Positions 5,468-58,788 of a DNA stretch of 64,000 nt are shown one piece after another (positions within the stretch are counted from its first letter, which is position 1; every line of letters starts with the position of its first letter). The position numbers and the translations under genes were made by a program. The notes below the pieces were generated by a model. That model did not search any database. It was not told the origin of the DNA and worked only from the letters and a program-made list of their open reading frames with translations. This stretch comes from an uncultured Actinomycetota bacterium (GTDB taxonomy: Bacteria; Actinomycetota; Actinomycetes; JACCUZ01): NCBI GenBank assembly GCA_963839955.1, contig CAWIXB010000001.1, positions 1,154,826 through 1,218,825 of the forward strand, given 5' to 3'.

Positions 5468-6310
5468 GTGCTCCGGACGTCGTCGCTGCGTGTACTCCGC
5501 GGAGACGACCTCCCGGCCGTGACCGCGCTGCTCGACCGTGACCCTGTTTCCAACGTCTTCGTCTCCGCTCGCATCGAGGCGCTCGGGCTCGACCAGAGTC
5601 GCCTCGGCGCGCAGATGTGGGGCCACGTCGTCGACGGGCGAGTGATGGCGGTCTGCCACGCGGGCGCGAACCTGATTCCGGCGGCGGCCGACGGCGACGC
5701 GGTGCGCGCGTTCGCCGACCGCGCCAAGCGCCAGGGTCGTCGCTGCGCGTCCATCGTCGGCCCGCGCGCCGCTGTCGACGCGCTCTGGGAACGCCTCGAG
5801 CCGGCGTGGGGACCGGCCCGCGACGTACGCGAACGGCAGCCGCTGCTGGCGGCGTCCGCACCGTCGCGGGTCCCGGCCGATCCTGGCGTACGACGGGTGC
5901 GGCCCGACGAGATCGACATCCTGCTGCCGGCGTGCATCGCCATGTTCACCGAGGAGGTCGGAGTCTCGCCGGTCGGCAGCGACGGAGGCACGGCGTACCG
6001 AAGCCGGGTGGGCGAGCTGATCGCGGCGGGCCGGTCGTTCGCCCGCATCGACGACGGCCGGGTGATCTTCAAGGCCGAGATCGGGTCGGCGACCAGCCGC
6101 GCGTGCCAGGTGCAGGGCGTCTGGGTCGACCCCGAGCTGCGCGGACAGGGCCTGTCCGTCGGCGGCATGGCGGCGGTCGTGGACATGGCCCTGCAGGACG
6201 TCGCGCCGACCGTGAGCCTCTACGTCAACGACTTCAACGCGGCGGCGCTCGCTGCCTACCGCCACGTCGGCTTCGAGGACCGGGGCACGTTCATGTCGGT
6301 GCTGTTCTAG
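5468..6310 (+). CDS. GNAT-family N-acetyltransferase (conserved partner of ispG in actinobacteria, Rv2867c-like)
   Basis: C-terminal GNAT motif VQGVWVDPELRGQGLSVGGMAAVV. Position immediately after ispG. GTG start is in the 5123 ORF frame. Confidence 0.75.
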   Translation: MLRTSSLRVLRGDDLPAVTALLDRDPVSNVFVSARIEALGLDQSRLGAQMWGHVVDGRVMAVCHAGANLIPAAADGDAVRAFADRAKRQGRRCASIVGPRAAVDALWERLEPAWGPARDVRERQPLLAASAPSRVPADPGVRRVRPDEIDILLPACIAMFTEEVGVSPVGSDGGTAYRSRVGELIAAGRSFARIDDGRVIFKAEIGSATSRACQVQGVWVDPELRGQGLSVGGMAAVVDMALQDVAPTVSLYVNDFNAAALAAYRHVGFEDRGTFMSVLF

Positions 6311-6329
6311 GCGCGCTCGATTTCTCCGG

Positions 6330-6411
6330 CCTGTGGATACGTTTCCGCGGAAACGCTCTGGTGCGGCCGTCCACGGCTGAACCCCTGTGGATACGTTTCC
6401 GCGGAAACGCT
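6330..6411. repeat. Two perfect copies of a 28-bp direct repeat (cctgtggatacgtttccgcggaaacgct) with 54-bp period, each containing the perfect 16-bp palindrome cgtttccgcggaaacg
   Basis: The copies at 6330-6357 and 6384-6411 are identical 28/28. The palindromes are at 6340-6355 and 6394-6409. Copy 2 is followed by cttttg. Confidence 0.9.
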
Positions 6412-6474
6412 TTTGCCTGGCTCGTCGGATCCGCGCGCCGTCGTTCTGTCGGAGGTGCGCCGTAGCGTCCGGTC

Positions 6475-7968
6475 ATGACGAACACTCTTGAGGCCGACAG
6501 CGCAATCCCTGACCTCGTTGCCGACCGCCCCGTTGCCGAAGGGCCTCCCGTCGACACGGCGGTTGCCCACACCCTGTCGGTGGCCGAGCTCGAGGACCAG
6601 CTCTGCACGTTGTACGGACAGCTTGCGGCGGGTGAGGCCGAGTTCCTCAGGCTGCTCGCGGAGTTCGACGAACGCGAGGGCTGGGGTGGCTGGGGCGTTC
6701 GCTCGTGCGCGCACTGGCTGTCCTTGCGGTGCGGCATGCGTCTCGGTGCTGCCCGGGAACGCGTGCGAGTGGCCAAGGCGCTGACCAGGCTCCCGTTGGT
6801 CCGGTCCACGTTCGCCGCGGGTCAGCTGTCCTACTGCAAGGTCCGCGCGCTGACCCGGGTGGCGACGACGGCGACGGAGGCCGATCTCGTCGAGGTCGCT
6901 CGTGGCGCGACCGGCGCCCAGCTCGAACGCATCGTGCGCACCTGGGCGGCCTTGCTGACACCGGAGATGTCCGCCTCTCGGAACCTTCGCCGAAGTTGCA
7001 CGCGCCGTGAGCAACCTGACGGGTCGGTCATCTTCACCGTTCGCCTCGCTCCCGAGGACGCCGCGGTGCTCGACTCTGCCATCGCCGCCGCCCGCGCGGT
7101 CACCGACGACGAGCAGGGACAGCCTCGCGAGACTCCGGAAGAGAAGCAGCTCGCCGCCGAGCTCACCGTCGAACCGCCCTTTGTCCGCGCCACGGCTGAT
7201 GCGGTCGTCCTGCTCGCCGAGAGCTTCCTGACCCCCTCCGCCGTCGCTGGCGACGCCGCCGGCGCCGAGCCCCGGATCGTGGTGCACGCCGACGCCGACT
7301 GGCTCCTTGCCGACCCAGACGTGACCGCGGACCCAGCTGCCCCAACGACCCCGCCGTTCCCCGTTGCTGCCCCGCCGACCGTGGAACTCCAAGCCAGGGC
7401 ACTGCCGACGCAGCGAGCGCACGTCGACGGTGGTCCGCCGTTGTCGCGTGCCGTCGTGCTGCGCCTGCTCTGCGAGGCTTCCGTCGCGGTGATGACGCAC
7501 GCCGCGGACGGGCAACCGCTCGATCTCGGCCGCACCCGCCGCAACGCCAGCGCGAAGCAGCGAGCAGCCCTGCACGCACGCGACGGAACTTGCCGATTCC
7601 CCGGCTGCACCCAGCGACACCGACTCATCCCGCACCACGTCCGGTGGTGGTCGATGGGCGGACCCACCGACCTCGACAATCTCGTCCTGCTCTGCCGGGC
7701 CCATCACCGAGCCGTGCACGACGTGGGCTACACCATCGCCAGTCGCGGCCGTGGCGACTTCGTGTTCTTCCGGCCCGACGGTCGCCCCCTTCCGCCGCCC
7801 GGTCCGTCCCGACCGTCCTCGCACGACGTCGCCCGCCCCGGCCTGACCCAGGGATGGGACACCGCCGAGCCCATCACCGCCGACACCATCTCCCCGACCT
7901 GGGGTGGTGAACGACTCGACCTACGCATGCTCGTCGACGGCCTGGCGCAGCAATACCTGGCGGCGTAA
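6475..7968 (+). CDS. DUF222 domain protein with C-terminal HNH endonuclease motif (REP13E12-family-like, mobile-element associated)
   Basis: The N-terminal region matches DUF222 (AELEDQLCTLYGQLAAGEAEFLRLLAEFDEREGW...SCAHWLS). The C-terminus has CRFPGC...HHVRWWSMGGPTDLDNLVLLCRAHHRAVH (HNH). It interrupts the otherwise conserved ispG-GNAT / proS neighbourhood. Confidence 0.85.
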   Translation: MTNTLEADSAIPDLVADRPVAEGPPVDTAVAHTLSVAELEDQLCTLYGQLAAGEAEFLRLLAEFDEREGWGGWGVRSCAHWLSLRCGMRLGAARERVRVAKALTRLPLVRSTFAAGQLSYCKVRALTRVATTATEADLVEVARGATGAQLERIVRTWAALLTPEMSASRNLRRSCTRREQPDGSVIFTVRLAPEDAAVLDSAIAAARAVTDDEQGQPRETPEEKQLAAELTVEPPFVRATADAVVLLAESFLTPSAVAGDAAGAEPRIVVHADADWLLADPDVTADPAAPTTPPFPVAAPPTVELQARALPTQRAHVDGGPPLSRAVVLRLLCEASVAVMTHAADGQPLDLGRTRRNASAKQRAALHARDGTCRFPGCTQRHRLIPHHVRWWSMGGPTDLDNLVLLCRAHHRAVHDVGYTIASRGRGDFVFFRPDGRPLPPPGPSRPSSHDVARPGLTQGWDTAEPITADTISPTWGGERLDLRMLVDGLAQQYLAA

Positions 7969-8058
7969 GCCCGGAAACGCCCGCGCCGCCTCGGCGGTCG
8001 GGCGGATATCCTCGCCGGGCGTCGCACCGACGTGACCGAGTGCCCACGAGGAGCTGCT

Positions 8059-9831
8059 GTGCTGCTGCGGATGTCGACCCTGTTCCTGCGCACCCTGCGT
8101 GAGGACCCGGCCGACGCCGAGGTGCCGAGCCACCGGCTGCTGGTGCGCGGCGGCTACATCCGCCGCGCCGCGCCGGGCGGCTACACCTGGCTGCCGCTGG
8201 GCTGGCGGGTCTATCGCAACGTCGAGCGGGTGGTGCGCGAGGAGATGGACCGGATGGGCGCGCAAGAGGTGCACTTCCCGGCGCTGCTGCCGCGCGAGCC
8301 CTACGAGCAGACCGGACGCTGGACCGAGTACGGCGACGACGTGTTCCGGCTCAAGGACCGCAAGGGCGCCGACTTCCTCCTGGGCCCGACCCACGAGGAG
8401 ATGTTCACGCTGCTGGTCAAGGATCTCTACTCGTCGTACAAGGACCTGCCGCTCTGGCTCTACCAGATCCAGACGAAGTTCCGCGACGAGCAGCGGCCCC
8501 GCGCCGGACTGCTGCGCGGCCGCGAGTTCGTCATGAAGGACTCCTACTCCTTCGACATCGACGACGCCGGGCTCGAGAAGTCCTACGCCGCCCACCGCGA
8601 GGCCTACATCCGGACGTTCGACCGGCTCGGGCTCGACTACGTGATCGTGTCGGCCCTGTCCGGTGCGATGGGCGGCTCGAAGAGCGAGGAGTTCCTCACG
8701 CCGGCCGCGGTCGGCGAGGACACCTACGTCCGGTGCACGACGTGTGACTACGCCGCCAATGTCGAGGCCTTGCGCACCCTGGTCCCACCGGTCCAGCCGT
8801 ACGACGACGTCCCCGCGGCGCATGTCGAGGACACACCCGACACCCCGACCATCGAGACCCTTGTCGCGCTGGCCAACAGCCGCGACGACCTGCGTCGTGA
8901 CGACCGCGAGTGGGCCGCCGGCGACACGCTGAAGAACGTTGTGGTCAAGCTCCGCACGCCCGAGGGCAAGACCGAGCTGCTCGCCATCGCCGTGCCTGGC
9001 GACCGTGAGGTCGACGCCAAGCGGCTCGAGGCCGTCGTGCACCCCTCGGTCGTCGAGCCCTTCACCGAGGAGGACTTCGCGGCCACCCCCGGCCTGGTGC
9101 GGGGGTACATCGGGCCGGCTGCTCTCGGCGCCGACAAGCCCGCAGGAGTGCGCTACCTGCTCGACCCACGCGTCGTCGAGGGCACTCGCTGGATCACCGG
9201 CGCCAACGAGCCCGGTCGCCACGTCTTCGACCTGGTGGCCGGCCGCGACTTCACCGGTGACGGCACCATCGAGGCCGCCTCGGTGTTCGAGGGCGACCCC
9301 TGCCCGAACGACGACGGCGGCACCCTGATCACCGCGCGCGGCATCGAGATGGGCCACATCTTTCAGCTCGGCCGCAAGTTCGCCGACGCCCTCGACCTCA
9401 AGGTGCTCGACGAGCACGGCAAGCAGGTCGTGGTGACGATGGGGTCCTACGGCGTCGGCGTCTCGCGCGCCGTCGCAGCGATCGTCGAGTCGACACACGA
9501 CGAGCTCGGGCTCTGCTGGCCGCGCGAGGTGGCACCGGCCGACGTGCACGTCGTAGCGACCGGCAAGGACGCCGCGGTGTTCGACGCGGCGGACGCGCTG
9601 GCCGGAGATCTGGTCGCCTCGGGCCTGACGGTGCTCTACGACGACCGGCGTGGCGTGTCGCCAGGTGTGAAGTTCAAGGACGCGGAGATGCTCGGCATGC
9701 CGACGCTGGTCATCGTGGGCAAGGGGCTCGCCGACGGCGTCATCGAGGTGCGCGACCGGCGTACCGGTGAGCGCACCGACGTGCCCGTCGCCGACGCGGC
9801 GGACCGCGTGCGCGCAGAGTGCGCGCGGTGA
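8059..9831 (+). CDS. proS: Proline--tRNA ligase
   Basis: N-terminus [19 protein letters not shown] is typical of ProRS. Class II aaRS motifs, an editing-domain-sized insertion and a C-terminal anticodon-binding domain are present. GTG 8059 preferred (GAGGA 8 nt upstream); ATG 8071 is the alternative. Confidence 0.9.
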
Positions 9832-10569: not shown

Positions 10570-11004
10570 TCATTGCTGCGCTTCGGGTATCCCCGGAAAC
10601 GGGACGCTGCCGCCGCGCCACGTCGCCGCGCGCACCGCAGTGTCCTGCAGGGAGCGGGCGGCGAGCGCGCGCAGGCCGCCGGTGAGCGAGGCGACCGCAT
10701 CCGCCCACACCGCACCGAGCCGCTCCTCGAGCTCGGTCGCGAGCAATGCCGCGTCGTCGGCGTCACGCACCGGCCGCGGCAGCGCGTACGCCGCCTCCGA
10801 CGGCACGGGCTCGGCTCCGCGACTGCGCACCAGCTCGGCCAGCTGGTCGCGGCGACGCCGATGGGCGGTGATCGCGTTCTCGGCCCGGTCGCGGTCGTCG
10901 CTGCGCAGCCGCGCGCCGACAACGCCGTAGCCGTAGACCGCCGCGTGCTCGCCGGCCAGCACGGTCTGCAAGGTGTCCACCACGGGGCTCTTGGGAGCTG
11001 TCAT
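10570..11004 (-). CDS. Conserved Ala-rich hypothetical protein (Rv2844-like; ferritin-like/DUF4439 domain)
   Basis: 144 aa, protein-like composition. Conserved position between proS and rimP in actinobacteria. Overlaps the upstream lipoprotein gene by ATGA. Confidence 0.55.
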   Translation of the reverse strand: MTAPKSPVVDTLQTVLAGEHAAVYGYGVVGARLRSDDRDRAENAITAHRRRRDQLAELVRSRGAEPVPSEAAYALPRPVRDADDAALLATELEERLGAVWADAVASLTGGLRALAARSLQDTAVRAATWRGGSVPFPGIPEAQQ

Positions 11005-57711: not shown

Positions 57712-57822
57712 TGTGACCCGGGGGCCTGACAAGGACGCGGCCCCAGCCGACCGGCCCGCTCGCCGGCTCAGATGAGGGGAGAATTGGGTTGAGTTGTCGG
57801 GGTGCCCGTCTAAGGTCGAGCC

Positions 57823-58788
57823 GTGCCCGACACCCAGCCCCTGATCCATGCCCGGGGGCTGGTGAAGCGCTTCGGCGACTTCACCGCGGTCGACGGCATC
57901 GACGTCGACGTCGCCCGCGGCGAGGCCTTCGGGTTCCTGGGGCCCAACGGCGCCGGCAAGTCGTCGACCATGCGCATGATCGGCTGCGTGTCACCGGTGA
58001 CCGAGGGCACCCTCCGGGTCCTCGGCCTCGACCCTGCCGTCGACGGTCCCGAGATCCGGGCCCGTCTCGGGGTGGTGCCGCAGGACGACACGCTCGACGT
58101 CGAGCTGACCGTGCGCGAGAACCTCATCGTCTACGGCCGCTACTTCGGCCTGCCGCGCCAGGTGATCGCCGACCGTGCCGACCAGCTGCTCGACTTCGTC
58201 CAGCTGGCCGAGCGCGCGGGCAGCAAGGTCGAGCCGCTCTCGGGCGGTCTCAAGCGGCGGCTGACCATCGCGCGCTCGCTGGTGAACGACCCGGAAGTGC
58301 TCATGCTCGACGAGCCCACGACGGGACTCGACCCGCAGGCCCGCCACGCCGTGTGGGACCGGTTGTTCCGCCTCAAGCAGCAGGGCGTGACCCTCGTGCT
58401 CACCACCCACTACATGGACGAGGCCGAGCAGCTCTGCGACCGGCTCGTCGTGATGGACCGGGGGCGCATCGCCGCCGAAGGATCGCCGAGCGAGCTGATC
58501 CGCACATGGTCGACCCGCGAGGTCGTCGAGCTGCGGTTCGCACCCGGCGACAACGAGGCGGCCGGGGAGAAGCTCGAGGCGCTCGCGGCCGAGGTTGGCG
58601 GCCGGCTGCACGAGCTGGTCGCCCGCGTCGACCTGCTCCCCGACCGGGTCCTGCTCTACGCCGACGACGGTGACGCGACAGCCGCCGAGGCGCATCGGCT
58701 GGGGGTCGTCGCGCTCTCCGTGCTGGTGCGTCGCAGCACGCTGGAGGACGTCTTCCTCCGGCTGACCGGGCGCACGCTGGTCGACTGA
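57823..58788 (+). CDS. ABC transporter ATP-binding protein (DrrA/NodI-like exporter ATPase)
   Basis: Walker A GPNGAGKSS, Q-loop, signature LSGGLKRRL, Walker B LMLDEPTTGLD, H-loop. Confidence 0.92.
   Translation: MPDTQPLIHARGLVKRFGDFTAVDGIDVDVARGEAFGFLGPNGAGKSSTMRMIGCVSPVTEGTLRVLGLDPAVDGPEIRARLGVVPQDDTLDVELTVRENLIVYGRYFGLPRQVIADRADQLLDFVQLAERAGSKVEPLSGGLKRRLTIARSLVNDPEVLMLDEPTTGLDPQARHAVWDRLFRLKQQGVTLVLTTHYMDEAEQLCDRLVVMDRGRIAAEGSPSELIRTWSTREVVELRFAPGDNEAAGEKLEALAAEVGGRLHELVARVDLLPDRVLLYADDGDATAAEAHRLGVVALSVLVRRSTLEDVFLRLTGRTLVD

Follow-up and report, generated by a model that had tools for sequence, protein, structure and literature searches.

The sites parS (TGTTTCAC-GTGAAACA) and NBS (TATTTCCC-GGGAAATA), which are bound by ParB and Noc, are the closest described counterparts of the element reported here, and specificity for parS or for NBS is set apart by two positions, of which position 6 is one (PMC7383237). 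The DNA analysed was a stretch of 64,000 nucleotides from an uncultured Actinomycetota bacterium, here called the window, in which two identical 28-bp repeats lie upstream of a gene for a protein with a DUF222 domain and an HNH endonuclease domain, each repeat containing a perfect 16-bp palindrome, CGTTTCCGCGGAAACG. Like parS and NBS, this site is a spacer-free perfect palindrome of 16 bp with a TTTC/GAAA core. Its halves, CGTTTCCG-CGGAAACG, match the half-sites of parS and of NBS at 5/8 positions each, with a parS-like G1 and an NBS-like C6, and variants in the wider family also read TGTTTCCGCGGAAACA. From parS the window site differs at positions 6 and 7, and its four central bases set it apart from parS and NBS. 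The palindrome has the architecture of parS and NBS; however, those sites lie near oriC or scattered on the chromosome, while the DUF222-HNH sites are in or beside their own gene, where binding is predicted. A scan of the 64-kb window for host parS/NBS-like sites gave none at up to three mismatches. The DUF222 domain shares with ParB and Noc the motif 'LP...G.LS...RAL', but DUF222-HNH proteins lack the ParB/Srx CTPase domain and the ParA partner and have the putative helix-turn-helix (HTH) region fused to an HNH nuclease.

Several other systems resemble the locus in single features. KorB of plasmid RK2 is a ParB-family protein that represses transcription from palindromic operators (OB) placed at variable distances from the promoter, and the likeness to a ParB-type HTH and a palindrome at variable promoter distance makes autoregulation plausible for DUF222-HNH genes. 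KorB has a CTPase/clamp domain and no nuclease and acts on many plasmid operons, whereas the DUF222-HNH sites are mostly intragenic. The REP13E12 repeats of Mycobacterium tuberculosis ('13E12 repeat' genes) encode the same protein family, DUF222 plus HNH; they are repeats without a defined function and are reported as leading gene-conversion hotspots in that species. REP13E12-type genes of mycobacteria are reported to be induced by DNA damage independently of RecA. The phiRv1 attB site in REP13E12 has a different core sequence. Free-standing homing endonuclease genes resemble the window in having a nuclease gene inserted in a conserved neighbourhood, with related sequence on both sides and solo sites elsewhere (here one inside a mini-intein). 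In classical homing, however, the insertion splits the site and the endonuclease gene itself contains none, while DUF222-HNH genes keep intact sites in or beside the gene. Rickettsia palindromic elements show that palindromic DNA can be tolerated in frame within protein-coding genes, and the DUF222-type palindrome is likewise read in frame (VSAET or DVSAETS) in linkers, tails and an intein linker; unlike the Rickettsia elements, it is much shorter (14–20 bp), nearly confined to one gene family and restricted to fixed positions, including a conserved domain block. No description of the palindrome was found in full-text literature searches on DUF222/HNH, REP13E12 and the motif. The pairing of a ParB-type module with a palindrome is already known, and what is new here is best classed as the fusion to an HNH nuclease and the embedding of the sites in the gene.

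The features of the locus are given in Table 1. The gene order is rseP, ispG, DUF4081/GNAT, DUF222+HNH, proS, and the two copies of the 28-mer, CCTGTGGATACGTTTCCGCGGAAACGCT, are 100% identical with a start-to-start distance of 54 nt, as the first-pass annotation of the window had described, together with the palindrome in each. The DNA separating and flanking the two copies has no mutual similarity, so that they represent two copies of a 28-bp module and not a duplicated 54-bp unit. In the 64-kb window no further 28-mer was found at up to three mismatches (0 expected from shuffles) and no further palindrome, apart from a single three-mismatch match at 10586 that is compatible with chance. The palindromes occupy the region 66–135 nt upstream of the ATG of the HNH gene. 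Beside each palindrome is a companion motif, CTGTGGATA (6331–6339 and 6385–6393), with related forms in other loci: CTGTGGAAA in L207, TTGTCCACAG or CTGTGGACAA in L003, L207 and L209, and an inverted pair in L003 (5900–5939). The companion motif could be a DnaA box, for which TTGTCCACA is the actinobacterial consensus, or else an extension of the site or a coincidence.

Table 1. Coordinates of the features around the two 28-bp repeats in the window (a dot marks features without a strand).
Feature	Position	Strand	Remarks
DUF4081/GNAT acetyltransferase gene (280 aa, P0122)	5468..6310	+	Conserved left flank; homology to relatives stops exactly at its stop codon
28-bp module, copy 1	6330..6357	.	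Companion motif CTGTGGATA and palindrome 6340-6355; palindrome centre -127.5 from ATG/predicted transcription start 6475
Distal palindrome CGTTTCCG-CGGAAACG	6340..6355	.	parS/NBS-like layout
28-bp module, copy 2	6384..6411	.	Identical to copy 1; palindrome 6394-6409, centre -73.5 from ATG; followed by TTTG
Proximal palindrome CGTTTCCG-CGGAAACG	6394..6409	.	Counterpart of single/overlapping sites 57-80 nt before ATG in L001, L003, L207, L209, L210, L214
Promoter-like element TGTCGGAG-N8-TAGCGT	6447..6468	+	6 nt before ATG 6475; leaderless start predicted; conserved in 8/8 subfamily loci
DUF222 + HNH endonuclease gene (497 aa)	6475..7968	+	Pfam domains
Half-site CCCGGAAACGCC	7970..7981	.	2 nt past HNH stop codon; exact 9-mer CGGAAACGC at 7972-7980
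proS (prolyl-tRNA synthetase)	8032..9831	+	Conserved right flank; homology to relatives restarts at ~8003 at GGATATCCTC

The subfamily to which the window gene belongs was represented by eight loci (the window, L001, L003, L207, L208, L209, L210 and L214), whose proteins are 51–58% identical and whose neighbourhoods are unrelated. A palindrome was located 57–80 nt before the ATG in seven of the eight; L208, the sole locus without an upstream palindrome, has two exact copies within its open reading frame (ORF) instead. Two overlapping palindromes are present upstream in L001, the symmetric variant GTTACCGCGGTAAC is present in L209 and L210, and almost all of the window module plus TTT recurs, as CTGTGGAAACGTTTCCGCGGAAACGCTTTT, upstream of the 56%-identical homologue in L207. 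The window HNH gene reads PLSRAVVLRLLCEA at a block that is conserved in the family and contains no internal palindrome, and a VSAET-type peptide was found in just 10/84 proteins of the subfamily. In this subfamily the palindrome element is located outside the ORF. Since the same palindrome accompanies homologues as distant as 51–58% in unrelated neighbourhoods, the element goes with the HNH gene and not with the GNAT gene, and the two repeats are, with high confidence, cis-elements of the DUF222-HNH unit. The suggestion that they belong to the adjacent HNH/DUF222 element is strongly supported by the same palindrome occurring with DUF222-HNH genes in unrelated contexts and phyla. Recurrence beside other DUF222/HNH copies, which had been proposed as a check and was looked for across genomes, was found both upstream, in the subfamily, and within the ORF, in 68/80 genes of the wider family.

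All eight subfamily loci also share the arrangement TGTC-N12-TA(G/C)(C/G)GT-N6-ATG. RecA-NDp is a non-palindromic motif spread throughout Actinobacteria and bound by the DNA-damage activator PafBC. Its consensus is reportedly tTGTCRgtg-N8-TAnnnT (Gamulin et al. 2004), and the element directly before the HNH gene fits this PafBC-dependent motif. The pattern TGTCRGNG-N8-TANNNT gave two matches in the window, compared to 0.02 expected. The promoter of the HNH gene is predicted to be PafBC-dependent and inducible by DNA damage. Its spacing from the ATG predicts a leaderless mRNA, which would place the upstream palindromes outside the transcript of the gene. The second RecA-NDp-like pattern, TGTCGGGG-N8-TAAGGT (57795–57825), is 6 bases before a GTG at 57823; the ORF behind it (57823–58788) has the same leaderless geometry as the HNH gene, and its start resembles an ABC-transporter ATPase.

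Some subfamily loci carry a partner gene. An exonuclease-endonuclease-phosphatase gene (EEP, PF03372, ExoIII-like) lies downstream of DUF222-HNH in L001 (7520–8323), L209 (4541–5320) and L214 (5870–), and EEP is fused to DUF222-HNH in P0059 (L210, 3001–4935), while the window copy is without an EEP partner. The DUF222+EEP pair of L001 has palindromes on either side.

The wider distribution of the palindrome was examined by scanning 596 Gb of genome sequence with the exact 17-mer ACGTTTCCGCGGAAACG, which matched at least 120 loci. About 40 among the 120 matches listed sit in or beside DUF222-HNH ORFs, and the taxa of these 40 are Gammaproteobacteria, Rokubacteria, Acidobacteriota, Gemmatimonadota, Myxococcota and Actinomycetota (at least six phyla). 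Approximately 70 chance matches are expected in 596 Gb, and most of the other listed matches are compatible with chance. An unbiased set was then compiled from 80 family genes chosen by protein similarity alone (34–42% identical to the window protein), in which the 14-mer GTTTCCGCGGAAAC was present exactly in 36 genes, with up to one mismatch in 55 and with up to two mismatches in 68. The density in this set was 97 sites per 106 kb of gene compared to 3 per 292 kb of flank, and 40 composition-matched control palindromes gave 0 sites. The intragenic sites occupy four fixed positions: a linker (at about profile position 200), the conserved block G..VSAETxRRLACD (at about 270), an RFRGN site approximately 47 residues from the C-terminus, where the palindrome is read in a different frame, and the C-terminal tail. 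The VSAET peptide is encoded by the exact 15-mer GTTTCCGCGGAAACG in 47/61 cases, while codon usage predicts 0.19%, and some genes (L145, L183) contain arrays of 4–5 palindrome copies. The location of the palindrome inside the coding sequence in most of the family is not visible from the window alone. With its palindromes, the window falls among the loci where a DUF222-HNH ORF has a GTTTCCGCGGAAAC-type palindrome inside it or no more than about 150 nt away, and the palindrome is a simple annotation marker of DUF222-HNH units and remnants. A generic REP-like element, which the first-pass annotation had set against its own proposal, does not describe this distribution, there being two copies in 64 kb and the non-chance matches elsewhere being tied to DUF222-HNH genes.

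The variation among the sites identified the level at which selection acts. Of the 26 variants with two mismatches, 17 remain perfectly palindromic and fall into seven kinds, and the commonest variant turns the peptide into VPAGT. Symmetric variants include GTTCCCGCGGGAAC and GTTACCGCGGTAAC, and at the pair 4/11 all of T·A, C·G, A·T and G·C occur. In a pair test on 131 distinct sites, 95 cells were changed on both sides compared to 67±6 in shuffles, and the covariation score was 0.147 compared to 0.115; neither value was reached in any of 500 shuffles. Selection is therefore on the symmetric DNA (or RNA) sequence and not on the peptide. The palindrome is shown to be under strong selection at the nucleic-acid level for a symmetric sequence. 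Copies within one gene also agree with one another, giving 10 identical variant pairs where 0.96 are expected (0/2000 permutations), and in L183 the asymmetric variant GTTACCGCGGAAAC is present at four sites and its reverse complement at the fifth. This agreement within genes and the inverted asymmetric variant argue for a double-stranded reader that co-evolves with the gene. Two other origins were considered for the repeats. Translated in the GNAT frame, the 28-mer gives CGYVSAETL, but a remnant of former DUF222 coding sequence is unsupported as no RRLACD-like continuation follows. A type III toxin-antitoxin-like repeat array upstream of a nuclease is rejected on the grounds that the family carries most of its copies inside genes and that the nuclease is of the DNA type.

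The protein encoded downstream of the repeats was matched by the Pfam families DUF222 (PF02720, E=1.3e-19, 71 bits, cutoff 24.4) and HNH (PF01844, E=7.7e-6, 26.4 bits, cutoff 21.4), with the HNH motif at approximately residues 382–416, and one homologue search gave more than 5,000 relatives; thousands of homologues have the same two domains. The AlphaFold model of the whole window protein had a pLDDT of 76 and a better model of residues 36–256 one of 86, and both were compared with known structures using Foldseek. Residues ~36–175 are modelled as a helical domain for which the sole high-probability matches were the DNA-binding domains of ParB, Spo0J and Noc, with Foldseek probabilities of 1.00 for Myxococcus xanthus ParB, 0.96 for Noc, 0.92 for Thermus thermophilus Spo0J and 0.77 for the Helicobacter pylori Spo0J-parS complex. 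The Noc DNA-binding domain bound to NBS matched with a target TM-score of 0.58, and the HNH part gave structural matches to McrA, IscB and Gme HNH. At the profile level, hhalign aligned the DUF222 pattern 'L..LP...af..G.LSYsKVRAlTRV' with the ParB/Noc pattern 'LL.LP........g.LS.ghaRALl.l' over 27 columns (P=0.012), and Pfam HTH_ParB matched weakly in 3/37 family members (E>=0.14). On these models, homology of the DUF222 domain to ParB is suggestive. The absence of a CTPase domain means that the DUF222 protein is no canonical member of the ParB family, the likeness being limited to the DNA-binding module.

We lean, by a modest margin over even, towards reading the palindromes as putative double-stranded binding sites of the unit's own ParB-like HTH, with the DUF222 domain as the predicted reader of the palindrome, binding as a dimer. 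In the window the two sites, centred at about -74 and -128, would lie upstream of a RecA-NDp-like promoter of the PafBC type from which a leaderless mRNA would start at the ATG at 6475. The sites would recruit the product of the downstream gene to its own locus, and this recruitment may serve autoregulation, with the sites as operators, or offer a defined entry point where nicking by the HNH domain promotes gene conversion or recombination of the unit; the two effects may also be combined. Autoregulation would be the simplest effect of the predicted binding at the window locus. An earlier proposal of a tandem operator for a dimeric regulator thus appears to hold in spirit, given a symmetric site with parS/NBS layout upstream of a conserved promoter. 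Across the family, a further role in nuclease entry or recombination is suggested by the intragenic and stop-proximal copies, the bracketing in L001, the half-site in the window, the solo palindromes and the REP13E12 hotspots.

Several observations weigh against binding by the unit's own DUF222 domain. The similarity to ParB is weak by E-value, the Foldseek E-values of the ParB-type matches being ~0.05; the hhalign probability of the ParB match was 3.7%, and an HMMER profile gave no match among the sequences of the Protein Data Bank. No ParB/Srx CTPase domain was matched by Pfam in the protein, and in the model a long helix comes first and leads straight into the putative HTH region. No clear specificity residue emerged when protein columns were tested for mutual information with the site type (T-type compared to C-type), in a comparison confounded by phylogeny and based on small numbers. 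Intragenic sites are an odd location for an operator, and sites for self-cleavage in the nuclease's own gene are the reverse of classical homing. The distance from the palindrome to the TGTC box varies from 0 to 37 nt among loci, which is not a strict operator geometry, and approximately 10–15 extended 'solo' palindromes have no DUF222 gene within 8 kb. Finally, the compensatory symmetric changes are equally expected of a hairpin or a cruciform.

This last point leads to the first alternative, in which the palindromes act through nucleic-acid structure, as an mRNA hairpin or a DNA hairpin or cruciform, with no recognition of the duplex sequence. Such a structure could affect mRNA stability or attenuation, form a replication or recombination hotspot, or be the substrate of a structure-specific HNH nuclease. 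Pairing is kept by the compensatory changes, with all four base pairs at 4/11, and some solo copies extend to perfect palindromes of 20–34 bp with variable outer arms. A 16-bp stem can also form between one window copy and the other (z = -4.2); in the RNA fold, a 7-bp inverted repeat, GGCGCGC/GCGCGCC (6310–6316 and 6433–6439), encloses both 28-mers and forms the base of this long structure. The core hairpin itself is weak, however, at -5.2 kcal/mol, and the central CGCG that would be its loop is 85–99% conserved, on a par with the arms. Intermediates with G:U are no more frequent among the variants than those with C:A, and the subfamily sites are upstream of the predicted leaderless start and would not be in the mRNA. 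These observations favour a duplex site over a hairpin, and the asymmetric variant found in both orientations in one gene, together with the agreement within genes, is not predicted by independent hairpins. A role through structure is considered unlikely.

The second alternative, which we regard as equally improbable, is that the palindromes are the ends or the homing or target site of a mobile DUF222-HNH unit, the nuclease cutting an unoccupied palindrome into which the gene is then copied; the upstream copies and the downstream half-site in the window would be leftovers of the target. The surroundings of the gene fit such a history. Relatives with a GNAT gene 73–79% identical (L204–L206) have other cargo between GNAT and proS, and their similarity to the window is interrupted between the GNAT stop and ~30 nt beyond the HNH stop, where no sequence is shared, which defines the region from 6311 to ~8000 as a lineage-specific insert in a variable spot. 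The other cargo comprises DUF6299 and DUF6158 genes in L204 and an ABC transporter with an Rrf2 regulator in L205 and L206, and the box GGATATCCTC, ~30 nt upstream of proS, is kept in the relatives like the rest of the flanks. The half-site behind the HNH stop codon, which had been noted as degenerate in the first-pass annotation, is real, with two mismatches to the 12-mer right half; its 9-mer occurs four times in the window, two of these within the palindromes. By a post hoc estimate, a given stop codon would have a match of this kind within 30 nt by chance with a probability of ~0.01, and the half-site is a possible right-hand boundary or remnant site. Also in favour are the full palindromes on both sides of the DUF222+EEP pair in L001, the copies just past the stop codon in L129, L075, L108 and L057, the solo palindromes in intergenic DNA and in a mini-intein linker, and the gene-conversion hotspots formed by REP13E12 loci in M. 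tuberculosis. On the other side, the boundaries of the insert are only bracketed (6311 to ~8000), because the nearest relatives available for comparison all carry other genes there and not an empty site. Full, undisrupted palindromes persist beside and inside the genes, unlike classical homing sites, and the family is nearly absent from plasmids, with six weak protein matches only, and from viral contigs, where three matches were found, none with DUF222. The DUF222-HNH system is essentially chromosomal.

The solo palindromes include two distinctive cases. A GyrA/ParC-type topoisomerase gene in a metagenome-assembled genome (MAG) of the Actinomycetes (L070, 1224–4328) is split after the active-site 'RY' by a mini-intein of ~172 amino acids (CLSGDTQV...GIVSHN|T). 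A 34-bp perfect palindrome on the same core is present in frame (VDDVSAETSSTL, 1934–1967) in the central linker of this intein, making it a second selfish element that carries the DUF222-type core, in the position expected for a homing endonuclease domain. In a Kofleriaceae MAG (L026, 6677–7231), six palindromes were found in 550 bp as parts of larger imperfect repeats, and the 8-kb locus revealed no DUF222-HNH ORF. Solo exact matches in the VSAET frame that lack a palindrome extension were in ordinary genes (ThrRS, DnaE, acyl-CoA dehydrogenase and others) and are compatible with chance.

Binding by a regulator encoded by the host, such as the chromosomal ParB, another ParB-family protein or a dimeric transcription factor, would make the palindromes operators of a more conventional kind. 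The site is parS/NBS-like and lies upstream of a predicted stress promoter, and 16-bp palindromes are common for dimeric host regulators. Against this, the same site is found with the family across Actinomycetota, Gammaproteobacteria, Acidobacteriota, Gemmatimonadota, Rokubacteria and Myxococcota, which favours a reader encoded by the element, and the site variants follow individual genes. The mismatches to parS include the specificity-determining position 6, and no further copy is present in 64 kb of this genome, so that a host regulator is considered very improbable. Least credible of all are duplicated Rho-independent terminators of the GNAT gene that shield the nuclease gene from read-through: copy 2 was picked up by a terminator scan and the palindrome has a T-rich tail in the window, L207 and L209, but of the hairpin that had been described, a 6-bp stem with a 4-nt loop followed by a T run, the stem and loop stand while the T run is present after copy 2 (CTTTTG) and not after copy 1 (CTCTGG), L001, L003 and L214 also lack it, the hairpin has only -5.2 to -6.3 kcal/mol in a genome of ~70% GC, the GNAT orthologues of L204–L206 have no such element after their stop codon, and most family copies are inside ORFs.

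Two further observations concern the annotation of the window. An overlapping ORF of 282 amino acids in another frame (5617–6465) spans the 3' half of the GNAT gene and both repeats; its translation matches a database 'partial GNAT' entry (60% identity over 55% of the query), which probably stems from annotation in the wrong frame, in a genome of high GC content, and does not represent a genuine gene. An Rfam scan at the gathering threshold gave no match at the repeat locus, and identified an Actino-pnp RNA (RF01688, 55.9 bits) at 24286–24350, the leader of polynucleotide phosphorylase, which marks the genome as actinobacterial.

The DUF222-HNH family is very large; it includes M. tuberculosis REP13E12, and its function has been unknown since 1999. 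The combination of an element that overrides codon choice and amino-acid identity, its likeness to parS and NBS, and a ParB-like domain in the protein gives a testable model in which protein, site and promoter are defined. In its most speculative form, which we put forward tentatively and consider doubtful, DUF222-HNH genes of the REP13E12 type would be self-recognising nuclease genes: the ParB-derived HTH would read the parS-like palindrome embedded in frame in its own coding sequence and in the flanks, and the HNH domain would nick there under DNA-damage control and drive gene conversion or homing. If true, this would explain the REP13E12 hotspots, the concerted variants within genes and the solo 'landing pads', including that in the intein linker. 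The ParB DNA-binding module would then have gained a new use in evolution by being joined to a nuclease, and it would be unusual for a protein-coding gene to contain multiple in-frame copies of its own presumed recognition site.

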